IMG/VR virus record: IMGVR_UViG_3300022861_000081
Reading direction: 5' to 3' (one strand)
DNA: 20,000 bases
DNA from: an uncultured virus (IMG/VR IMGVR_UViG_3300022861_000081)
Lineage: Duplodnaviria > Heunggongvirae > Uroviricota > Caudoviricetes
This document shows positions 3,466 to 17,887 of this stretch, in pieces. Made by a program: the position numbers and the translations under genes. Positions within the stretch are counted from its first letter, which is position 1, and every line of letters begins with the position of its first letter. Under the pieces are notes generated by a model. The model did not search any database. It had not been told where the DNA came from and saw nothing but the letters and a program-made list of their open reading frames with translations.

Positions 3466-4747
3466 GTTGCATCTATTCGATGCACTAAAACCGCATTGCT
3501 ACGGTGGAATGTCCACTTCTTCGTCAGACGTATACAGTTGCATCTATCCGATGCACTAAAACTGCGTTGCTACAATAATCTCCCAATGGAGTGGGAACCC
3601 GACTATGTTGCACTTGTCCAGTGCACTAAAACTTCGTTGCTACTGTGCATGTTGACAAAAAAGGCAAACTTAAGTGGTTGCACTTGTCCAGTGCACTAAA
3701 ACTGCGTTGCTACGCCCAATGTCTCCGATGATGCTCTCTGGACGAACGGGTTGCACCTGTCCAGTGCACTAAAACTTCGTTGCTACGAGGTGCCGAGATG
3801 GGCAAAGACAACATTTATGTGGTTGCATCTATCCGATGCACTAAAACTTCGTTGCTGCGTAAAGCCGTGAAATTTACCTCGCATATCTGGATGTTGCACT
3901 TGTCCAGTGCACTAAAACTACGTTGCTACGCCGGGTCCAGCAGGAGCACGTTATCTGTGGGCGGTTGCACTTGTCCAGTGCACTGAAACTACGTTGCTAC
4001 GAGACACCCTGCACTTCATCGCAAAATTCGATGGGTTGCACTTATCCAGTGCACTAAAACTGCGTTGCTACGCGTAGTTTCATTCGAGGAGCGTACATTG
4101 TCATAGTTGCACTTGTCCAGTGCACTGAAACCGCGTTACTACTTCAGCGTGTTGCACTTGTCCAGTGCACTAAAACTGCATTACTGCGTGACAAAGCGTC
4201 AATAAAGCGCCGATTCCGAAGGTTGCACTTGTCCAGTGCACTCAAACTGCGTTGCTACAATGCCCCTCGGCTTGCCGTTTCGACGGCACTGGCGTTGCAC
4301 TTGTCCAGTGCACTAAAACCGCGTTACTACACTATCGGCCAAGAGATAAGGGCGACCCAAGCAAGTTGCACTTGTCCAGCGCACTAAAACCGCATTACTA
4401 CGAATCATTCATAAATTCATAGACTGCGATAAAGCGTTGCACTTGTCCAGTGCACTCAAACTGCGTTACTACTTTTGGACGAGATGGATGCAGCTGTAGG
4501 AGGAAACGTTGCACTTGTCCAGCGCACTTTAACTGCGTTGCTACTTGCTACAGTTCATACACTTGTGCGGAAGATTGGTGTTGCACTTATCCAGTGCACT
4601 TAAACCGCGTTGCTACTTGGTTCCGTATTTTTCAAGTGCGTTGCATCTACTCGATGCACTAAAACCACGTTGCTACCTGCGCTTAAGCTCGTTACAGGCT
4701 CTGAGTTTGTGTTGCATCTGCTCGATGCACTTTGACTACGCTGGTGC
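3466..4747 (-). CRISPR. CRISPR array 1: 19 repeats of 37 nt, 18 spacers
   Basis: + strand consensus GTTGCA(CT/TC)TRTCC(AG/GA)TGCACTAAAACYGCGTTRCTAC; repeats start at 3466, 3537, 3607, 3677, 3750, 3822, 3893, 3964, 4035, 4106, 4151, 4222, 4294, 4365, 4436, 4508, 4580, 4640, 4711; spacers are 33-36 nt except one of 8 nt and one of 23 nt; minus orientation inferred from G-U wobble pattern and promoter. Confidence 0.97.
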
Positions 4748-4849: not shown

Positions 4850-7162
4850 TCAAAGATCGTCTGTGCCGCTTTCGTCACCTTCCAGCGACTGCGTGTCTTC
4901 TTCTTCGTCTTCAAATCCCGGCGTCTGTGCGTCTTCTTCAGATTCGTCTTCATTTCCCAGCGCCAGCTTTGCCAGCTTGGGATCGCAGGCAAAGCGCGAC
5001 AGATTTACCGCAGCGTTGTAATCCTGGTCAATCAGCCTTCCACATGCTTCACACTGGAAGCGATCCTTTTCCGTCGATGGATTCAGATGATTGCAATATG
5101 AGCACATGCGCGTTGTGTTCATTGCCTCATACGGCTCAGTCACAATTCCGTATTTCACGGCAGTGTACTTGAGCAGAGAGATGAAGCGGCCAACAGCAGC
5201 AAATTGCCGGTATTTCTGCGAGCGCTTCAAGCTTACGGGATCGGTGTTCTCCTGGTGGACCGCAATTTTGGCCAGAAAGTTCTTTTCCAGGATCAACCGT
5301 GTAATGCTCTTTTTCTTCAGGTAGCTGCAAACATCATGGGCGACTTGCAGCTGGTTGTATTCAATACGCGCGCTGACTTTTTTGCTGTATGCGGCCGCAA
5401 GAGTCCCAATTTGTTCCTCGTTTTTTCCCCACGCATTCAGGATGCTCTGCACATCAACATCGTCTTTGAATTCCTCCTTGAGCCGCAGCAATCCACTACG
5501 ACCGGCTTTCTCCAGCCATGCAGGCGTGTTTTCCCCAAGTTGCTTGCGCAGCGCAATCTTGGCCGTATCTTTGAAGTAGTCACGGCGAGTCTGCAACGCG
5601 GTTCTGATCTCCAACGCGTTGGGGATTCCATCTCCCGGCTTCCAATCAGGGAATAGCCGCGTGATATTGCGTTTTTCCCAGCGTGTGGGTCCCATATCGA
5701 TGCGGAATGGCACACGATCTTTGTGATCTTTGGGCGATTTCTCAAAGTCCATCACAAGCTCGCGCACTGTCCAGCTCGTTGGCTCATACAGTGTGCCAAA
5801 CCGAATTCCCACTTCTGTACGCCGCCAGCCAATATCCAAACCGGCTGCAAGGGCAGTGGAAGTCGGTAGGTCACGTTGCAGCTCAACCACCAAGCAGAGC
5901 CAAAGTTTGCCATCCTGCAATAGAAGTTTCCACTCTTTTACGTGGGAGTTTGAGGGCAACGGTCGCCACTGAATGACCGCAAAACGAAAACGCCATTGCT
6001 GGTTATCGTCTCCACGAATGGAAATCTCCGCTTCTCGAAGCGTTTTGCCACCGCCTACCGTCTGGATTAACTCATGCCCCGTATTGGCAGGATCGAGTGG
6101 CGCTCCAAACGACAATCCCGGTACGCCTTCCTTGGACTCCAGCAATGAGGAACTGACGCCAGCCTTGTTGAAATAGTAATGCAGACCCCAATCGCCGGCC
6201 TTGGGGCTGTCGTTGTACTTGATGAGTGGCCAGCCCTCGGACCAAGTCAGCTTTTTGGTCCTGCGGCGATCGAGTGTTGCCTTGAAGGCGGTGATTGTCG
6301 GCCGAATTTCAAAGCTCCGTAGCTTGAGATCCTTTGCTTCCTTGTTGGCAATCGGTCCAAAATTCTTTACAAACTCGTCGAGCGCGGTGTAGTCCGTCTT
6401 GTGCTGCTGGGCAAAGGTAATCACCTTTTCCAGCAAACCTTCTGGCACGGGACGATCTTTGTCGACGCGCTTCCGCAGATCACCAACAAAATGCCACAAA
6501 CCATCTAGGCCGGGCATCTCGACCTTCAGCTTCGCTGGGTGCTTCATCTTGTCTTTGGAGCGACCGAGCGCGTCGTTAAAAGCATCGATCGCTGGCAAAA
6601 TAACGGTTTGGACAAAATCGGTAATCTCCTCGGGGGAACCAGAAGAGCATTGGCGCCGTGCTTCGCGGCAAAGCCAAGCCAGGCGGTTCCAGAGGTCCCT
6701 TTGTCGCGTGATCGATGCTTTGAGCCACTCAGGTACTTCGCCGCTCGTGTTCGTGCCTTCATGGGTAAAGTACGCACGGTATTTATAGATGGCATTTGAC
6801 CATCCATCTTCTGCCGAAAACTGACGCGGCGTTTTTGACATTCCGCCAATGTGGAAGATGGTCGGCTGCTTTTCGTCTACCAGCAGCACTCCAGATCGTT
6901 TCTGCGGACGCAGTTCGCCGTCAGGTGCCACCAGTTGAAAATTCATTGGTGTATCTGTCTTGAGATGAAGATCTGCGGGAATCGCCACTGCCGGCAACTG
7001 TGCAAACGTTGCCAGGCGCGTGCTCTCGTCAAACACGATGCGGCCATGCGTAAAAGCCTTGGTGGTCTTTAGTGACGTTTCTGCGGCGTGCACAAAGACG
7101 CAATCGTCTTTGTAGGTCAATTCTTTGATCATGCTTTTGATCCTTTCGGTGAACTGTTGCAT
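4850..7162 (-). CDS. cas12: Type V CRISPR effector, Cas12m (V-M / V-U1)-like TnpB-family RuvC protein, 770 aa
   Basis: RuvC-I AAGLDIGWRRTEVG preceded by QWRPLP...KLWLCLVV (resembles the Cas12m HRxLP...LCV...ALxLGWRxTExG block); RuvC-II LILE; Zn finger TTRMCSYC..NP...CEACG; RuvC-III DQDYNAAVNL; adjacent to the array. Confidence 0.85.
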   Translation of the reverse strand: MQQFTERIKSMIKELTYKDDCVFVHAAETSLKTTKAFTHGRIVFDESTRLATFAQLPAVAIPADLHLKTDTPMNFQLVAPDGELRPQKRSGVLLVDEKQPTIFHIGGMSKTPRQFSAEDGWSNAIYKYRAYFTHEGTNTSGEVPEWLKASITRQRDLWNRLAWLCREARRQCSSGSPEEITDFVQTVILPAIDAFNDALGRSKDKMKHPAKLKVEMPGLDGLWHFVGDLRKRVDKDRPVPEGLLEKVITFAQQHKTDYTALDEFVKNFGPIANKEAKDLKLRSFEIRPTITAFKATLDRRRTKKLTWSEGWPLIKYNDSPKAGDWGLHYYFNKAGVSSSLLESKEGVPGLSFGAPLDPANTGHELIQTVGGGKTLREAEISIRGDDNQQWRFRFAVIQWRPLPSNSHVKEWKLLLQDGKLWLCLVVELQRDLPTSTALAAGLDIGWRRTEVGIRFGTLYEPTSWTVRELVMDFEKSPKDHKDRVPFRIDMGPTRWEKRNITRLFPDWKPGDGIPNALEIRTALQTRRDYFKDTAKIALRKQLGENTPAWLEKAGRSGLLRLKEEFKDDVDVQSILNAWGKNEEQIGTLAAAYSKKVSARIEYNQLQVAHDVCSYLKKKSITRLILEKNFLAKIAVHQENTDPVSLKRSQKYRQFAAVGRFISLLKYTAVKYGIVTEPYEAMNTTRMCSYCNHLNPSTEKDRFQCEACGRLIDQDYNAAVNLSRFACDPKLAKLALGNEDESEEDAQTPGFEDEEEDTQSLEGDESGTDDL

Positions 7163-7175
7163 TTACCCAATGCAC

Positions 7176-7358
7176 TCAAACTTCTTCCTCTGCTGCTTTT
7201 TTCAGAGACTCGACATAATGCAGAAAAGCAGCAAGGACAGCGGGTTCTAGGTAAACTTGGTTGGTTTTGCGGATTCCATCCGATGCGTACAACTCGATCT
7301 GGTAGCCGTCAAAAGAAGCGTAAAGCCCATCGCCCAAGTAGACATCGTTTCCCTCCAT
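7176..7358 (-). CDS. Small phage hypothetical protein
   Basis: YLGDGLYASFDGYQIEL...NQVYLEP.VL motif is familiar from phage hypotheticals; ends 13 nt before the cas start, so it is probably co-transcribed; start uncertain. Confidence 0.6.
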   Translation of the reverse strand: MEGNDVYLGDGLYASFDGYQIELYASDGIRKTNQVYLEPAVLAAFLHYVESLKKAAEEEV

Positions 7359-7524
7359 GTCCAGCCTCATTTTTCGCGCCTTTTTTTCGATAGCACAGCC
7401 AGAAAAAAGAAGAGCAAAAGCCAAAAAGTACCTGGGTCAACCTTCACGCCAGACATGGCTTTTCTCCTCTGCTTGTCATGCGCGCAATTATATAAAAAAA
7501 CAGCGGTTGTGGAGCAAATTAAAT

Positions 7525-8714: not shown

Positions 8715-9257
8715 CTAATTTATCGTGTTTTTCCACCAGTCCGGCAAAAAGTTGACTGCAGCCGCAGGTCGTTCCTCGGTCGGCGCAAATTCAATTTTTC
8801 CTTTTGCGTTTTTCTCGTAAAAGGTCATGAAATTGGCAGGCATGATCTGTGGACCCTTGATGCTCGTGACCAATGCATCAACCCATAGCTCCCGTGGCAA
8901 ATTTGCCACAGTTCCGTCGAATCTTTCTGCAAGAATGCGAATGTATTCCTTTTCGTATTCTTTGAAGGGGATCTTTTCCGCAAGCCCAAAATACTTGGCG
9001 AATTTGCTTCCATTGACTGCCATTGCGTCCGACTGTACCAGAGCTGCCGGCAAATGAATTTCAGAAAATATCTCCCGAGTCATGGTTCTCAAAGCCGCAC
9101 GACCAGCATCGTCAATGCCATTCGTAAGAATCAAATCTCTTTGCGCAGCACATCCATTGTGGTCGTAGGCCCGCACCATAAAAGGAAGGGATTCGCCTTT
9201 GCTGAGTGTTTGAATGCCTTCGTCGTGAACTTTGCGGCAAATCTCGCGCCAATCCAT
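8715..9257 (-). CDS. Hypothetical protein, 180 aa
   Basis: ORF with a -10-like TATATT 6 nt upstream of the ATG. Confidence 0.6.
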   Translation of the reverse strand: MDWREICRKVHDEGIQTLSKGESLPFMVRAYDHNGCAAQRDLILTNGIDDAGRAALRTMTREIFSEIHLPAALVQSDAMAVNGSKFAKYFGLAEKIPFKEYEKEYIRILAERFDGTVANLPRELWVDALVTSIKGPQIMPANFMTFYEKNAKGKIEFAPTEERPAAAVNFLPDWWKNTIN

Positions 9258-9363
9258 GCACGCAATATACGCTCGGGAACTGCCGGAAGTCTACATTCCC
9301 AAGCGTAATAGGGATTGCCATTGCACCCAAAAAGTTATATATTTGTTTTATTGGAGACGCATT

Positions 9364-9621
9364 ATGTACACCACAAATCTGCGCAAAGTCGGCGGATCAA
9401 TCATGCTGGTTGTTCCCCCCGCATTTCTTGAGCAATTAAACATGCAGGTAGGAACTGCAGTAGGCGTGGCTATTGCGGATGGCCGCCTTGTCGTCAAACC
9501 AACGCCGCAGTCACATTACACGCTCAAGAAATTGCTGGCCATGTCCGACTACTCGCGCCCGCAGACAAAGGAAGATCGCGAATGGGTCAACAATCGCGCT
9601 GTGGGTGGCGAACTGCTATGA
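9364..9621 (+). CDS. pemI: AbrB/MazE-family antitoxin (PemI-like)
   Basis: MYTTNLRKVGGSIMLVVPPAFLEQL...GRLVV.P....YTL..LLA..D...EDREW....VGGELL; GGAG SD; TTGCCA-N17-TATATT promoter at 9315-9343. Confidence 0.9.
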   Translation: MYTTNLRKVGGSIMLVVPPAFLEQLNMQVGTAVGVAIADGRLVVKPTPQSHYTLKKLLAMSDYSRPQTKEDREWVNNRAVGGELL

Positions 9622-9944
9622 AGCGTGGAGACATTTATCTGGTTTCGCTCGATCCGACGCTAGGCCGTGAGCAGCAAGGAAGTCGACCAATCGTCATCGT
9701 TTCCGCAACAGAATTCAACCAAGCAACCAAATTGCCCGTAGTCTGTCCGATCACAGGCGGCGGAGATTTCGCGCGTCGCCTTGGATTTGCTGTTCCGATT
9801 TCAGGAATTGAAACAATGGGCATTGTTCGCTGCGATCAGCCCCGTGTGCTTGATCTTAGCGCTCGTAATGCACGCAAGATCGACACTTTGCCAAAGCCCA
9901 TCTTGGAAGAAGTCCTCGCAAAACTTGTTACGATTTTTGAGTGA
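9618..9944 (+). CDS. pemK: PemK/MazF-family endoribonuclease toxin
   Basis: MKRGDIYLVSLDPTLGREQQGSRPIVIVS...FN...PVVCPIT...RCDQPRVLD; ATGA overlap with the antitoxin. Confidence 0.93.
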   Translation: MKRGDIYLVSLDPTLGREQQGSRPIVIVSATEFNQATKLPVVCPITGGGDFARRLGFAVPISGIETMGIVRCDQPRVLDLSARNARKIDTLPKPILEEVLAKLVTIFE

Positions 9945-13151: not shown

Positions 13152-14108
13152 ATGAGTTTGAGCGTACTCAACAACATCAATGCTTCCTACGCCGAGTCCA
13201 ACCTGAACAAAACCAGCAGCAGCCTGTCCACGGTGTTGCAGCAGTTGTCTTCGGGTTCGAAGATCAACTCTGGCGCCGATGATGCCGCCGGCCTCTCACT
13301 GGTCAACGGTCTGCAGGCCAACCAGGAAGCCCTAAGCCAGTCGACCACCAACGCGACCGAGGGCGTGGGTCTTCTGCAGGTCGCCGACGGCGCACTTTCG
13401 CAAGTCACAAGCCTGCTCAACCGTGCTGTTACGCTGGCCACCGAGGTCTCGAACGGCACCCTCAACACCACACAGGACGCGGCGGCCAACGAAGAATATC
13501 AGTCGATTTTGTCGGAAGTTTCGAGCATCGGTTCGACGACCACCTACAACCAACAGCAGGTCTTTGGCAACACTTTTGCCATCTACACCGGCGACTCCAC
13601 CACGCAGGGTTCTTCGGTTGATGTTCTGTCCATCTCCGGGCTCAATGCTACGACAGGAACGGTTGGAGACGCGGGCGGCACACTCACCTACAAGACAGGC
13701 ACGGCTGATTCGACTACGGGTACTTCGATTACTTACGGCACGGCTGCTTCCATCTCCTATACGGCCAATGCCGGTATTTCACTTGGTGCAACCTCGCTTA
13801 GCGGCACAACTACTGCTGATGCACAGAAGGCTGCACAGATTGCTCTGACTAGCTTGAACACAGCCATTTCCGATGTGTCTTCACAGGACGGCTACATTGG
13901 TGCCCAGATCAACACTCTGAATGCCATCAGTACGGTCGAATCCTCGCAGCAGGAGAACATTCAGTCCGCGCAGAATGCCGTGCAGGCCACCGACTACGCG
14001 ACGGCTTCCTCCAACCTGTCCAAGTACGAGATCCTTAGTCAGACCGGCATCTCGGCTCTTTCCCAGGCCAACAGCGTCCAGCAGGAAGTCACCAAGCTGT
14101 TGCAGTAA
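13152..14108 (+). CDS. fliC: Flagellin
   Basis: N-terminal QLSSGSKINSGADDAAGL...NATEGVGLLQVADGALSQVTSLLNR; C-terminal IGAQINTL...ATDYA...LSKYEILSQTGISALSQAN...V.KLLQ; short Thr/Gly-rich variable domain. Confidence 0.97.
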   Translation: MSLSVLNNINASYAESNLNKTSSSLSTVLQQLSSGSKINSGADDAAGLSLVNGLQANQEALSQSTTNATEGVGLLQVADGALSQVTSLLNRAVTLATEVSNGTLNTTQDAAANEEYQSILSEVSSIGSTTTYNQQQVFGNTFAIYTGDSTTQGSSVDVLSISGLNATTGTVGDAGGTLTYKTGTADSTTGTSITYGTAASISYTANAGISLGATSLSGTTTADAQKAAQIALTSLNTAISDVSSQDGYIGAQINTLNAISTVESSQQENIQSAQNAVQATDYATASSNLSKYEILSQTGISALSQANSVQQEVTKLLQ

Positions 14109-14148
14109 TCAGCGGGTTTCATCACTTTGTATCAAAACACTCAGGGAC

Positions 14149-14183
14149 GGCGGCAAAGGAAATCTACTTTGCCGCCTTTTTTT
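14149..14183 (+). terminator. Rho-independent terminator after flagellin
   Basis: GGCGGCAAAG-N8-CTTTGCCGCC followed by T7. Confidence 0.85.
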
Positions 14184-14256
14184 ATTCAAAAGATTTAACT
14201 TTGGGGTCTGTTGGATGGCATTGACCTTGCTTATTCCTTCTTGGAGGAAAGATGAC

Positions 14257-15012
14257 ATGGAAGCATACCAGCAGAGCTATCCGATTCACGTGATAAATCT
14301 TCAACGTTCTGTAGAAAGGAAAAAATCGTTTGTAAAAAACAATCAGCACTTAAAATACAATTTCTTCCCCGCCTTTGATGGGAAAACATTGGGGGCATCA
14401 CTGCTGAACAGCGATAAGCTGTTTCTCCATCCACTTCCCTTCCCCAGTCTTGGTGCCTTTGGTTGTGCGTTGTCGCATTTCACATTGTGGAAATTGGCTA
14501 TGCAGAATAACTTAGCTATCACAATTGCCGAGGATGACGCGATTTTCCGGGATGACTTTGTGACAGCTTCGGCCAATCTGATTGAGTCGCTGCCCAAAGA
14601 CTGGGACATGGTCTATTGGGGATGGAATCTGGATGCGCCCTTGGTTGTTAGCATAATGGGGAATGCTGCGTCTGCCCTCTTGTCCTTTGACCAAAATGCA
14701 ATCGTCAAAAAGATTGACGCGTTTCGGATCTCAAAAGAACCGGCGACAGCACTAAAACTGAGCAAGTGCTTTGGCATACCTGCCTATACGATTTCTCCAC
14801 AAGGGGCAAAAAAGTTTATTGAACAGTGTTTCCCAATTAAAAATACGTATGTCGTATTTCCATTGCTGAACAAATATTTTTCTATGACGGGAGTCGATAT
14901 GGCCATGAATCTTATTCTTTCAGACACACAAAGTTATGTTGCTTTCCCTCCGTTAGTTGTGACCCCGAATGATCACGGTATCAGTACGATCCAACGCCCT
15001 GATTCTTTGTGA
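14257..15012 (+). CDS. Glycosyltransferase family 25
   Basis: IHVINLQRSVERK, FPAFDGK, GAFGCALSH..LW, IAEDDAIF, AYTISPQGAKK; GGAGG SD before ATG 14257 (the longer ORF-track start overlaps fliC and was discarded). Confidence 0.9.
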   Translation: MEAYQQSYPIHVINLQRSVERKKSFVKNNQHLKYNFFPAFDGKTLGASLLNSDKLFLHPLPFPSLGAFGCALSHFTLWKLAMQNNLAITIAEDDAIFRDDFVTASANLIESLPKDWDMVYWGWNLDAPLVVSIMGNAASALLSFDQNAIVKKIDAFRISKEPATALKLSKCFGIPAYTISPQGAKKFIEQCFPIKNTYVVFPLLNKYFSMTGVDMAMNLILSDTQSYVAFPPLVVTPNDHGISTIQRPDSL

Positions 15013-17435: not shown

Positions 17436-17887
17436 GTTGCATTTCTTCAATGCACTTCAACTTCGGTGGAACAAACAAAAGAGAATGCTTATCAAGGTTG
17501 CATCTATGCGACGCACTTCAACTGCTTTGCTACGTATCGTATTTAAAAGAAAAATCCCCTTGTCCATAGTTGCATCTATCCGATGCACTTCAACTGCGAG
17601 CTACTTGGGTCCAGCGTAAAAAGCACTGACATTGTTCAGTTGCATTTGTTCAATGCACTTTGACTGCTTTGCCGTAAAACGAGGCAAATATTCAATGGCT
17701 GTATGGTTGCATCTGCTCGATGCACTTCAACTGCCTTGCTACTCCAAAAGCTGGCATTATGAATCTGAGTGTTCTGTTGCATCTGCTCGATGCACTTCAA
17801 CTGCCTTACAGCGAATAGTTTAACCGATTTAGCGCAATATTGCTATTCAAGTTGCATCTATTCAATGCACTTCGACTGTGATAATTT
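17436..17887 (-). CRISPR. CRISPR array 2: 7 degenerate repeats of the same family, 6 spacers
   Basis: Repeats GTTGCATYT....RATGCACTTYRACTGC.TTGCTAC start at 17436, 17497, 17569, 17639, 17706, 17776, 17851; period 61-75 nt. Confidence 0.92.

Follow-up and report, generated by a model that had tools for sequence, protein, structure and literature searches.

The 20,000 nucleotide stretch of DNA from the uncultured virus IMGVR_UViG_3300022861_000081 analysed here (the window) carries a type V CRISPR effector gene, cas12, whose product has an additional domain in front of its Cas12/TnpB-like core. That this N-terminal domain is real, translated and the defining mark of a clade of Cas12 proteins seems to us hardly open to doubt. 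It is predicted to be an independently folding alpha/beta domain of ~95 residues, joined by a linker of ~15 residues to the first strand of the WED domain, and it matches no solved fold at a meaningful score. Our explanation as a whole, namely a real and clade-defining domain, a protein that starts at position 7132, and a function of the added domain as a nucleic acid-contacting module, is one that we consider evenly balanced when all of its parts are taken together.

The cas12 open reading frame (ORF) spans positions 4850–7162 of the minus strand and encodes 770 amino acids (aa) if counted from the ATG at 7162; residues are numbered below in this 770-aa frame, and those of the real protein are lower by 10. 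The encoded protein has the architecture WED-REC-RuvC-TNB, followed by an acidic and disordered C-terminal tail. Pfam recognizes its Cas12f1-like TNB zinc ribbon (PF07282, aa 658–721, E = 3.1e-13, 50.1 bits against a cut-off of 26.3), NCBIfam gives sub-threshold TnpB and Cas12f matches that are confined to the last 180 residues, and neither collection has a match on aa 1–550. The RuvC triad is canonical (D443/E626/D714), and in 69 aligned homologues its three columns hold D in 53 and E in 13, E in 64, and D in 64 sequences, respectively. The TNB cysteines C687, C690, C704 and C707 are near-invariant across the Cas12 homologues. An AlphaFold2 model of the full-length protein, made with a 69-sequence alignment, has a mean predicted local distance difference test score (pLDDT) of 84.9, and its RuvC core superposes on those of Cas12m, Cas12f and TnpB in Foldseek and VIA-align (VIA) comparisons. 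We also note that the C-terminal tail (aa 736–770; positions 4850–4957, minus strand) has a net charge of −17, pLDDT below 50 and 22% mean identity, and that it could be a nucleic acid mimic or an autoinhibitory tail.

A collection of 5.8 billion proteins, when searched, yielded 111 homologues of this protein, which are 37–94% identical to it and mostly 715–780 aa long; phages of peat and soil Acidobacteria carry the family and have CRISPR arrays of their own. The window is such a phage-borne type V locus, on a contig listed in IMG/VR, and its array begins 103 nt past the cas12 stop codon on the same strand. Of the 76 related loci, 42 have a detected repeat array, many of these 42 being redundant or truncated. 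No second copy or remnant of cas12 was found in the window by tblastn (next-best E = 1.1).

The first-pass annotation of this DNA took the ATG at 7162 as the start of the gene and described a fused N-terminal segment of ~120 aa. The extra segment is real, but its assumed start is probably wrong and its length is overestimated. Translation very probably begins at Met11 of the ORF (ATG at 7132), since most of the 111 homologues open with MI..L at the equivalent residue and residues 1–10 are gaps in 98% of the cells of the 69-sequence alignment. Of the 89 homologues matched by the full domain profile, 75 have the N-terminal domain from protein residue 1 onwards, a residue equivalent to Met11. In 20 of 50 related loci examined, no possible start of the ORF precedes the codon equivalent to Met11, and where earlier in-frame starts exist their positions vary. 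A Shine-Dalgarno-like sequence lies 8 nt upstream of the start at 7132 (Table 1), and related loci have comparable GGAG or GAGGA motifs ahead of the homologous start. At the other end of the disputed stretch, pLDDT is below 50 over aa 1–7, and the ATG at 7162 belongs to a CRISPR-repeat-like hairpin of the 5′ untranslated region (UTR; see below), being part of its 3′ arm. The first 10 codons (7133–7162) are almost certainly untranslated. On the combined evidence of the alignment gaps, the homologue starts, the related loci and the AAAGGA sequence, we take the protein to be 760 aa long, encoded by 4850–7132, so that the extension measures ~110 aa (7132 down to 6803) and not 120.

All of the peptides from which the extension was originally recognized are in frame (CVFVH, aa 21–25; GRIVFD, 40–45; MNFQLV, 73–78; GVLLVD, 91–96; TIFHI, 101–105; MSKTPRQ, 108–114; IYKYRAY, 125–131; EWL...ITRQRDLWNRL, 145–161), and its supposed beta-rich character is borne out by the AlphaFold2 model. 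Between aa 12 and 105 the full-length model has seven strands and one helix (strands 12–18 and 21–26; helix 31–39; strands 42–45, 50–53, 72–78, 84–92 and 102–105), with pLDDT ~90 across aa 11–105. For the domain by itself a profile hidden Markov model (HMM) and alignment, A2, were made from 34 sequences, those of the window and 33 related loci (of 34 loci translated, L011, which is frameshifted within the domain, was left out). A domain-only model from these 34 sequences has identical elements with a pLDDT of 82, which is lower over the linker (aa 106–120). The placement of the domain ahead of a TnpB/Cas12-like core is likewise confirmed: among the 50 Cas12/TnpB structures listed by VIA, every alignment to the full-length model starts only at aa 110–123.

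Conservation in homologues, which had been proposed as a check, is high. The HMM finds the domain in 101 of the 111 homologues, and the 10 without it are short gene calls of 451–693 aa that start inside the conserved body of the protein. The domain is nearly free of gaps in the 69-sequence alignment (gap fraction 0.0045), and its mean pairwise identity is 0.48, the other structured segments having values of 0.49–0.60 and the acidic tail one of 0.22. The ratio of nonsynonymous to synonymous substitution rates (dN/dS), from codon alignments, is 0.03–0.38 in 15 of 16 locus pairs (dS is saturated in one pair), and that of the rest of the gene is 0.06–0.21 in the 13 computable pairs. At the junction with the WED domain the columns G107, F115, G120 and W121 are invariant or nearly so, and F37, G40, L77, G82, Q87, R89, G107, G120 and W121 are kept in an alignment that includes distant members of 29–38% identity. 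Three distant members (P0128, P0133 and P0156, alignment A3) have H at the RuvC-I and Q at the RuvC-II position, yet they retain both the N-terminal domain and the overall architecture, which suggests that the role of the domain is independent of DNA cleavage.

Searches with the domain point to no relative outside of this clade. A Foldseek search for a known fold, also proposed with the first description, had a best E of 0.21 against the PDB, which is no usable match, and of 0.2 against BFVD. VIA comparison of the domain model with 48,161 PDB representatives gave no match at Z of 5 or above; the best was the RpfR FI domain at Z = 4.6, and further weak matches included many PAS and LOV domains at Z ~3 that span model aa 25–100 only, the tool's own stated noise level being a best Z of typically 7–8 for models without a true match. 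The best score in a feature-based search of the ESM Atlas was 0.87, under the lead threshold of 0.9. Pfam searches with each of the 34 domain sequences (E ≤ 5) hit no family in more than three members (best E = 0.012), and the best match of the A2 profile among PDB sequences was a TFG1 fragment at E = 0.018. Against 1.84 billion representative proteins the profile had 53 matches at E ≤ 1e-3, of which 33, both single- and multi-stretch, were sampled. The single-stretch matches that were checked are the N-termini of proteins of 725–854 aa (TNB is present in 9 of the 11 scanned) or fragments that continue into WED/REC. Nine scanned multi-stretch matches have Big_9, Ig-like, PKD, cadherin, PAS or P-domain repeats, and these we judged to be summed weak beta-strand similarity and not homology. 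No other protein context for the domain was found in the sampled profile matches; it occurs only at the N-terminus of the Cas12 clade and is thus a clade signature, not a fusion to a module known from elsewhere. The original idea of a natural Cas12 fusion therefore stands in that an extra domain is attached, but not in the sense of a recognizable module, as Pfam, the PDB and BFVD are all without a match. We found no description of the domain or the clade in the literature searched, and the family may already be catalogued among V-U6 to V-U45 (PMC10691335 supplement). A tblastn search of GenBank phages with the Cas12 protein found no relative.

By analogy with Cas12m2, we think it quite possible, though a little short of probable, that the N-terminal domain contacts nucleic acid. 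In the VIA superposition, residue 1 of Cas12m2 falls on aa 120. As described in the Cas12m2 structure paper, Met4 of that protein is stacked against the first base pair of guide and target, a flipped base of the scaffold is sandwiched by His12, the protospacer adjacent motif (PAM) duplex is clamped by WED and REC1, and the CRISPR RNA (crRNA) has a solvent-exposed 5′ end (PMC10442227). With a 15-residue linker leading into the strand that touches the R-loop start and the scaffold in Cas12m2, the domain would have to sit close to the repeat-derived crRNA handle and to the R-loop at its PAM-proximal end, a location that follows from the connectivity of the chain. There it may add a contact that stabilizes or reads the PAM duplex and/or the repeat handle, and this contact would be one that the 600-aa Cas12m enzymes lack. 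The charge of the domain across the family is consistent with such a role (mean pI 9.03, mean net charge +3.1). Positive residues are conserved in columns K32, K35, R85, R89, K98 and R104; R89 is kept in all 34 and Q87 in 33 of the 34 domain sequences, and in the model R85, Q87 and R89 alternate on one strand and so would form a conserved stripe on a single face. The helix carries a conserved K32...K35..F37-T38-H39-G40, and the KTPRxF of the linker is also a basic motif.

Several observations weigh against this function. The window protein's own domain is not basic (pI 6.4, net charge −1), the H39/FTHG motif is lost in distant members, and neither Foldseek nor VIA (best Z 4.6) recognized a nucleic acid-binding fold. 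The packing of the domain is inferred from chain connectivity. No protospacers were found, and hence no PAM can be derived to support a role in PAM recognition: when the window spacers were compared with the window and the 76 loci, the only matches were the arrays themselves and spacers that sister arrays share, and a distant-mode search of GenBank phages with the array had no match. Across 24 distinct consensus repeats, conservation of the 5′ half is no more than moderate, which weakens the idea of a dedicated reader for it. It is as a rather unlikely extension that we mention the boldest form of the proposal, in which the new fold would be a second recognition site (an extended PAM/duplex reader, or a reader/processor of the repeat 5′ half), and would mark a distinct phage-borne type V lineage, branched from Cas12m-like ancestors, that in part of the clade also controls its own translation through the repeat-like hairpin in the 5′ UTR.

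Other functions can be imagined for the domain. Cas12p uses TrxA, Cas12k uses TniQ/S15 and Cas12f dimerizes, and the domain might similarly be a protein–protein module that docks a phage or host partner or oligomerizes the effector; oligomerization and effector recruitment were among the roles suggested in the first-pass annotation. We find this rather unlikely, although the lack of a recognizable nucleic acid-binding fold and the slightly acidic character of the domain in the window protein are in keeping with it, and an N-terminal position on a flexible linker would suit docking. A candidate partner is the product of a small 82-aa ORF (phrog_11545) that recurs just upstream of cas12 in several loci. 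However, tblastn found this ORF in only 11 of the other related loci (L015, L043, L027, L004, L028, L005, L049, L002, L069, L037 and L014, the last a duplicate of the window contig), as against the presence of the domain in 101 of 111 homologues, so that no universally co-occurring partner is apparent; those matches whose positions were checked lie upstream of cas12. The solved Cas12m structures consulted are, moreover, described as single effector–crRNA–DNA complexes (PMC10442227). A homodimer prediction with two A2 copies scored 0.00 (mark 0.42), which gives no verdict and counts neither way.

We regard it as improbable that the domain is a pre-crRNA processing module, which would supply a metal-independent RNase site or a grip on the substrate for a cut upstream of the repeat hairpin. 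It has conserved residues that might serve this purpose (H39, K32, K35 and R89), and it would have to adjoin the repeat handle. In Cas12m2, mutation of WED H269/R270 or RuvC D485 has little or no effect on pre-crRNA processing and the crRNA 5′ end is solvent-exposed, so the processing mechanism is left unexplained (PMC10442227). The same source nevertheless shows that Cas12m2 processes its own array without such a domain; in addition, distant members with the domain have R, A, K or G in place of H39, and there is no likeness to a known RNase fold.

A PAS-like sensor that binds a small molecule or signal and allosterically gates Cas12 would correspond to the accessory sensor suggested in the first-pass annotation, and we rate it very improbable. 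Most of the weak structural matches are to PAS, LOV and FI domains (Z 2.9–4.6) and one multi-stretch profile match, P0145, has five PAS repeats, but every one of these scores is under the stated noise level of the tool, none of the 34 domain sequences matches a PAS Pfam model at E ≤ 5, the PAS alignments omit the first two strands (their model range starts at 25–29), and the Ig-like, PKD, cadherin and P-domain repeats of the other multi-stretch matches look like summed generic beta-strand similarity. Finally, the first-pass annotation had itself considered that translation might begin at an internal Met (MSKTPRQ, aa 108) with a non-conserved extension upstream, and while Met is common at aa 108 (consensus GMAKTPR) and one database protein, P0085 (693 aa), is called from it, such an annotation artefact has next to no chance of being correct, being already contradicted by the protein-like constraint on the extension, by the lack of a stop codon in the 33 locus sequences of A2 and of almost any indels, by the confidently predicted fold, by the variability of Met108 (H, T, L, R, K, Q, A and I are also seen) and by the resemblance of P0085 to a damaged copy (62% identity across only 71% of the window protein).

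The 5′ UTR of cas12 contains an element that resembles a CRISPR repeat but is solitary and degenerate. It agrees with the array repeats in the hairpin core and the bases 5′ of the core; the outer 5′ part is divergent and runs over the stop codon of the 82-aa ORF. The element ends 23 nt ahead of the ATG at 7132, and the place where its “spacer” would lie is occupied by the Shine-Dalgarno sequence and the cas12 start. Of 42 distinct upstream regions, 16 carry a hairpin that has a TGC stem and an A tail; 13 of these are clearly repeat-like, represent 9 lineages and end 15–42 nt before the start. Besides the window, these loci are L002, L008, L015, L020, L033, L037, L042, L043, L049, L054, L069 and L072. 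The looser criterion was passed by 13 of 708 control windows inside genes. In 11 aligned elements 97.4% of the stem cells are paired, with compensatory changes in 2 of the 7 pairs. L002, and apparently L033 and L072 as well, have a small array upstream of which the element forms the final repeat.

The repeat-like hairpin does not form in the minimum free energy fold of the window 5′ UTR alone (z = −1.43), so any function of the hairpin would need protein binding. The element may serve autoregulation as a site to which Cas12 binds, or an upstream array may have been lost with this terminal repeat remaining; we consider the binding of Cas12 to its own 5′ UTR plausible. Such binding cannot be the purpose of the N-terminal domain, since the domain is found almost throughout the clade, unlike the hairpin. 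Stand-alone repeat-like regulators and CreR mini-CRISPRs are described as autorepressing Cas expression, including that of type V-A (bioRxiv 10.1101/2023.03.03.530964, 10.1101/2023.03.10.532045). Like the regulators described there, the element is a solitary degenerate repeat beside a cas gene that it could regulate; unlike them, it lies on the sense strand within the 5′ UTR, and 23 nt separate it from the start. Direct mRNA binding is at least as plausible as promoter targeting.

Table 1. Positions of the cas12 gene, its N-terminal region and adjacent features in the window
Feature	Position	Strand	Basis or remarks
CRISPR array	3466..4747	minus	~19 repeats of 37 nt with a 3′ hairpin; spacers mostly 33–36 nt
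cas12 from its likely true start, 760 aa; Cas12m-like type V effector	4850..7132	minus	ORF, Pfam, PADLOC, AlphaFold2, Foldseek, VIA
First WED strand, ORF aa 121–131, includes IYKYRAY	6770..6802	minus	AlphaFold2 strand; solved Cas12/TnpB structures align from around here
Linker, ORF aa 106–120, conserved G107 and KTPRxF...EDG motif, into invariant W121	6803..6847	minus	Alignment columns
N-terminal domain proper, ORF aa 11–105 (real protein aa 1–95), predicted b-b-a-b-b-loop-b-b-b	6848..7132	minus	pLDDT ~90, conservation, dN/dS
Ten in-frame codons before the conserved start, probably 5′ UTR	7133..7162	minus	Alignment gaps, low pLDDT, start survey
Shine-Dalgarno-like AAAGGA, 8 nt upstream of the ATG at 7132	7141..7146	minus	Sequence read directly
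Solitary degenerate CRISPR-repeat-like element, hairpin core 7156–7175	7155..7195	minus	Member of repeat family D1
82-aa ORF, phrog_11545, immediately upstream of cas12	7176..7424	minus	PHROG match, E = 1.8e-15

The remainder of the window has several other features. At 17436–17887 on the minus strand, 10 kb away, 7 repeats of the same family, more degenerate than those next to cas12, form a second array; ~40 nt after its last repeat there is a GAGGAG Shine-Dalgarno sequence, then a small ORF, a layout with the repeat ahead of the gene that is also seen at cas12. At 2 kb from the cas12 locus a MazE-like antitoxin gene (E = 9.1e-06) is paired with a PemK/MazF-like toxin gene (E = 2.9e-25) at 9232–9944 on the plus strand. 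A gene for a full flagellin at 13152–14108 (plus strand; Flagellin_N, E = 1.5e-27, and Flagellin_C, E = 1.4e-14) is followed by a family-25 glycosyltransferase gene at 13921–15012 (plus strand), and for a phage this cargo is unusual. Eight tRNA genes (Thr, Arg, Ala, His, Met, two Ser and Leu) are scattered among small ORFs between 7558 and 18560, all on the minus strand; an interspersed set of tRNA genes is typical of large phages. The window also encodes a RecT and PD-(D/E)XK pair and an HNH endonuclease.

Cas12 enzymes are thought to derive from TnpB through added domains that improved guide handling and target recognition, and a clade-wide, well-folded N-terminal domain without a solved counterpart is a further example of such domain addition. 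Should the domain read DNA or the guide scaffold, it would offer a new means of altering the PAM range or guide specificity of compact Cas12m-type binders, proteins already in use for base editing; should it dock a partner, the protein would be another Cas12 that depends on an accessory protein. The family also adds to the known phage-encoded CRISPR systems.

The nearest solved relatives of this effector are the Cas12m proteins (subtype V-M, formerly V-U1). The structures compared were Cas12m2 (8hhl, 8hio and 8hhm), Cas12m (8pm4) and the Cas12m entries 23vw and 23vu. In Foldseek searches with the full-length model the nearest structures are Cas12m2 8hhl (E = 1.8e-21) and Cas12m 8pm4, then Cas12f, Fanzor2, TnpB and other Cas12 subtypes, and VIA aligns model aa 115–728 with chain residues 1–604 of 8pm4 (Z = 19.2) and aa 120–727 with chain residues 1–592 of 8hhl (Z = 19.0). 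Across these structural alignments the identity is only 13–16%, and similarity in sequence is confined to the C-terminal RuvC/TNB part: the best PDB sequence matches are Cas12m entries (E = 1e-07 and 8.5e-07) aligned over aa 612–728 only, and the PADLOC Cas12u1 profile (V-U1, now V-M) matches aa 379–713 only (E = 6.4e-23; profile positions 229–528 of 533), with the “Cas12f” model scoring equally. The protein shares with Cas12m its WED-REC-RuvC-TNB order, a repeat of ~36–37 nt, and a locus in which no Cas1, Cas2 or Cas4 match was found among the 23 window ORFs scanned with Pfam. It differs from the compact Cas12m layout of ~600 aa with WED at the N-terminus, as it has 760 aa, with ~110 residues preceding the point where the Cas12m chain starts; this N-terminal region thus makes up ~110 of the ~150 extra residues. 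Unlike Cas12m, it is found on phage contigs with tRNA, RecT and HNH genes.

The shared core fold extends to Cas12f and TnpB (AsCas12f 8j1j and ISDra2 TnpB 8h1j; VIA Z 13–16), which also have an IYKYRAY-type first WED strand and the TNB zinc ribbon; these proteins are about half the size, without an N-terminal domain ahead of the first strand, and the NCBIfam Cas12f/TnpB models give the window protein 43 bits against a cut-off of 100. An adjacent CRISPR array is the trait that separates Cas12 from TnpB. The protein is a distant Cas12m-like effector of the Cas12/TnpB superfamily, with the acidic triad, the TNB and the adjacent array all present. A trait of Cas12m is interference through binding of DNA, without cleavage of dsDNA. 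The DED triad of the window protein is that listed for Cas12m clades 3 and 4, whose activity is given as uncharacterized (PMC10442227), and the drift of the triad to H and Q in distant members that keep the N-terminal domain resembles the gradual inactivation described for V-M (PMC10691335).

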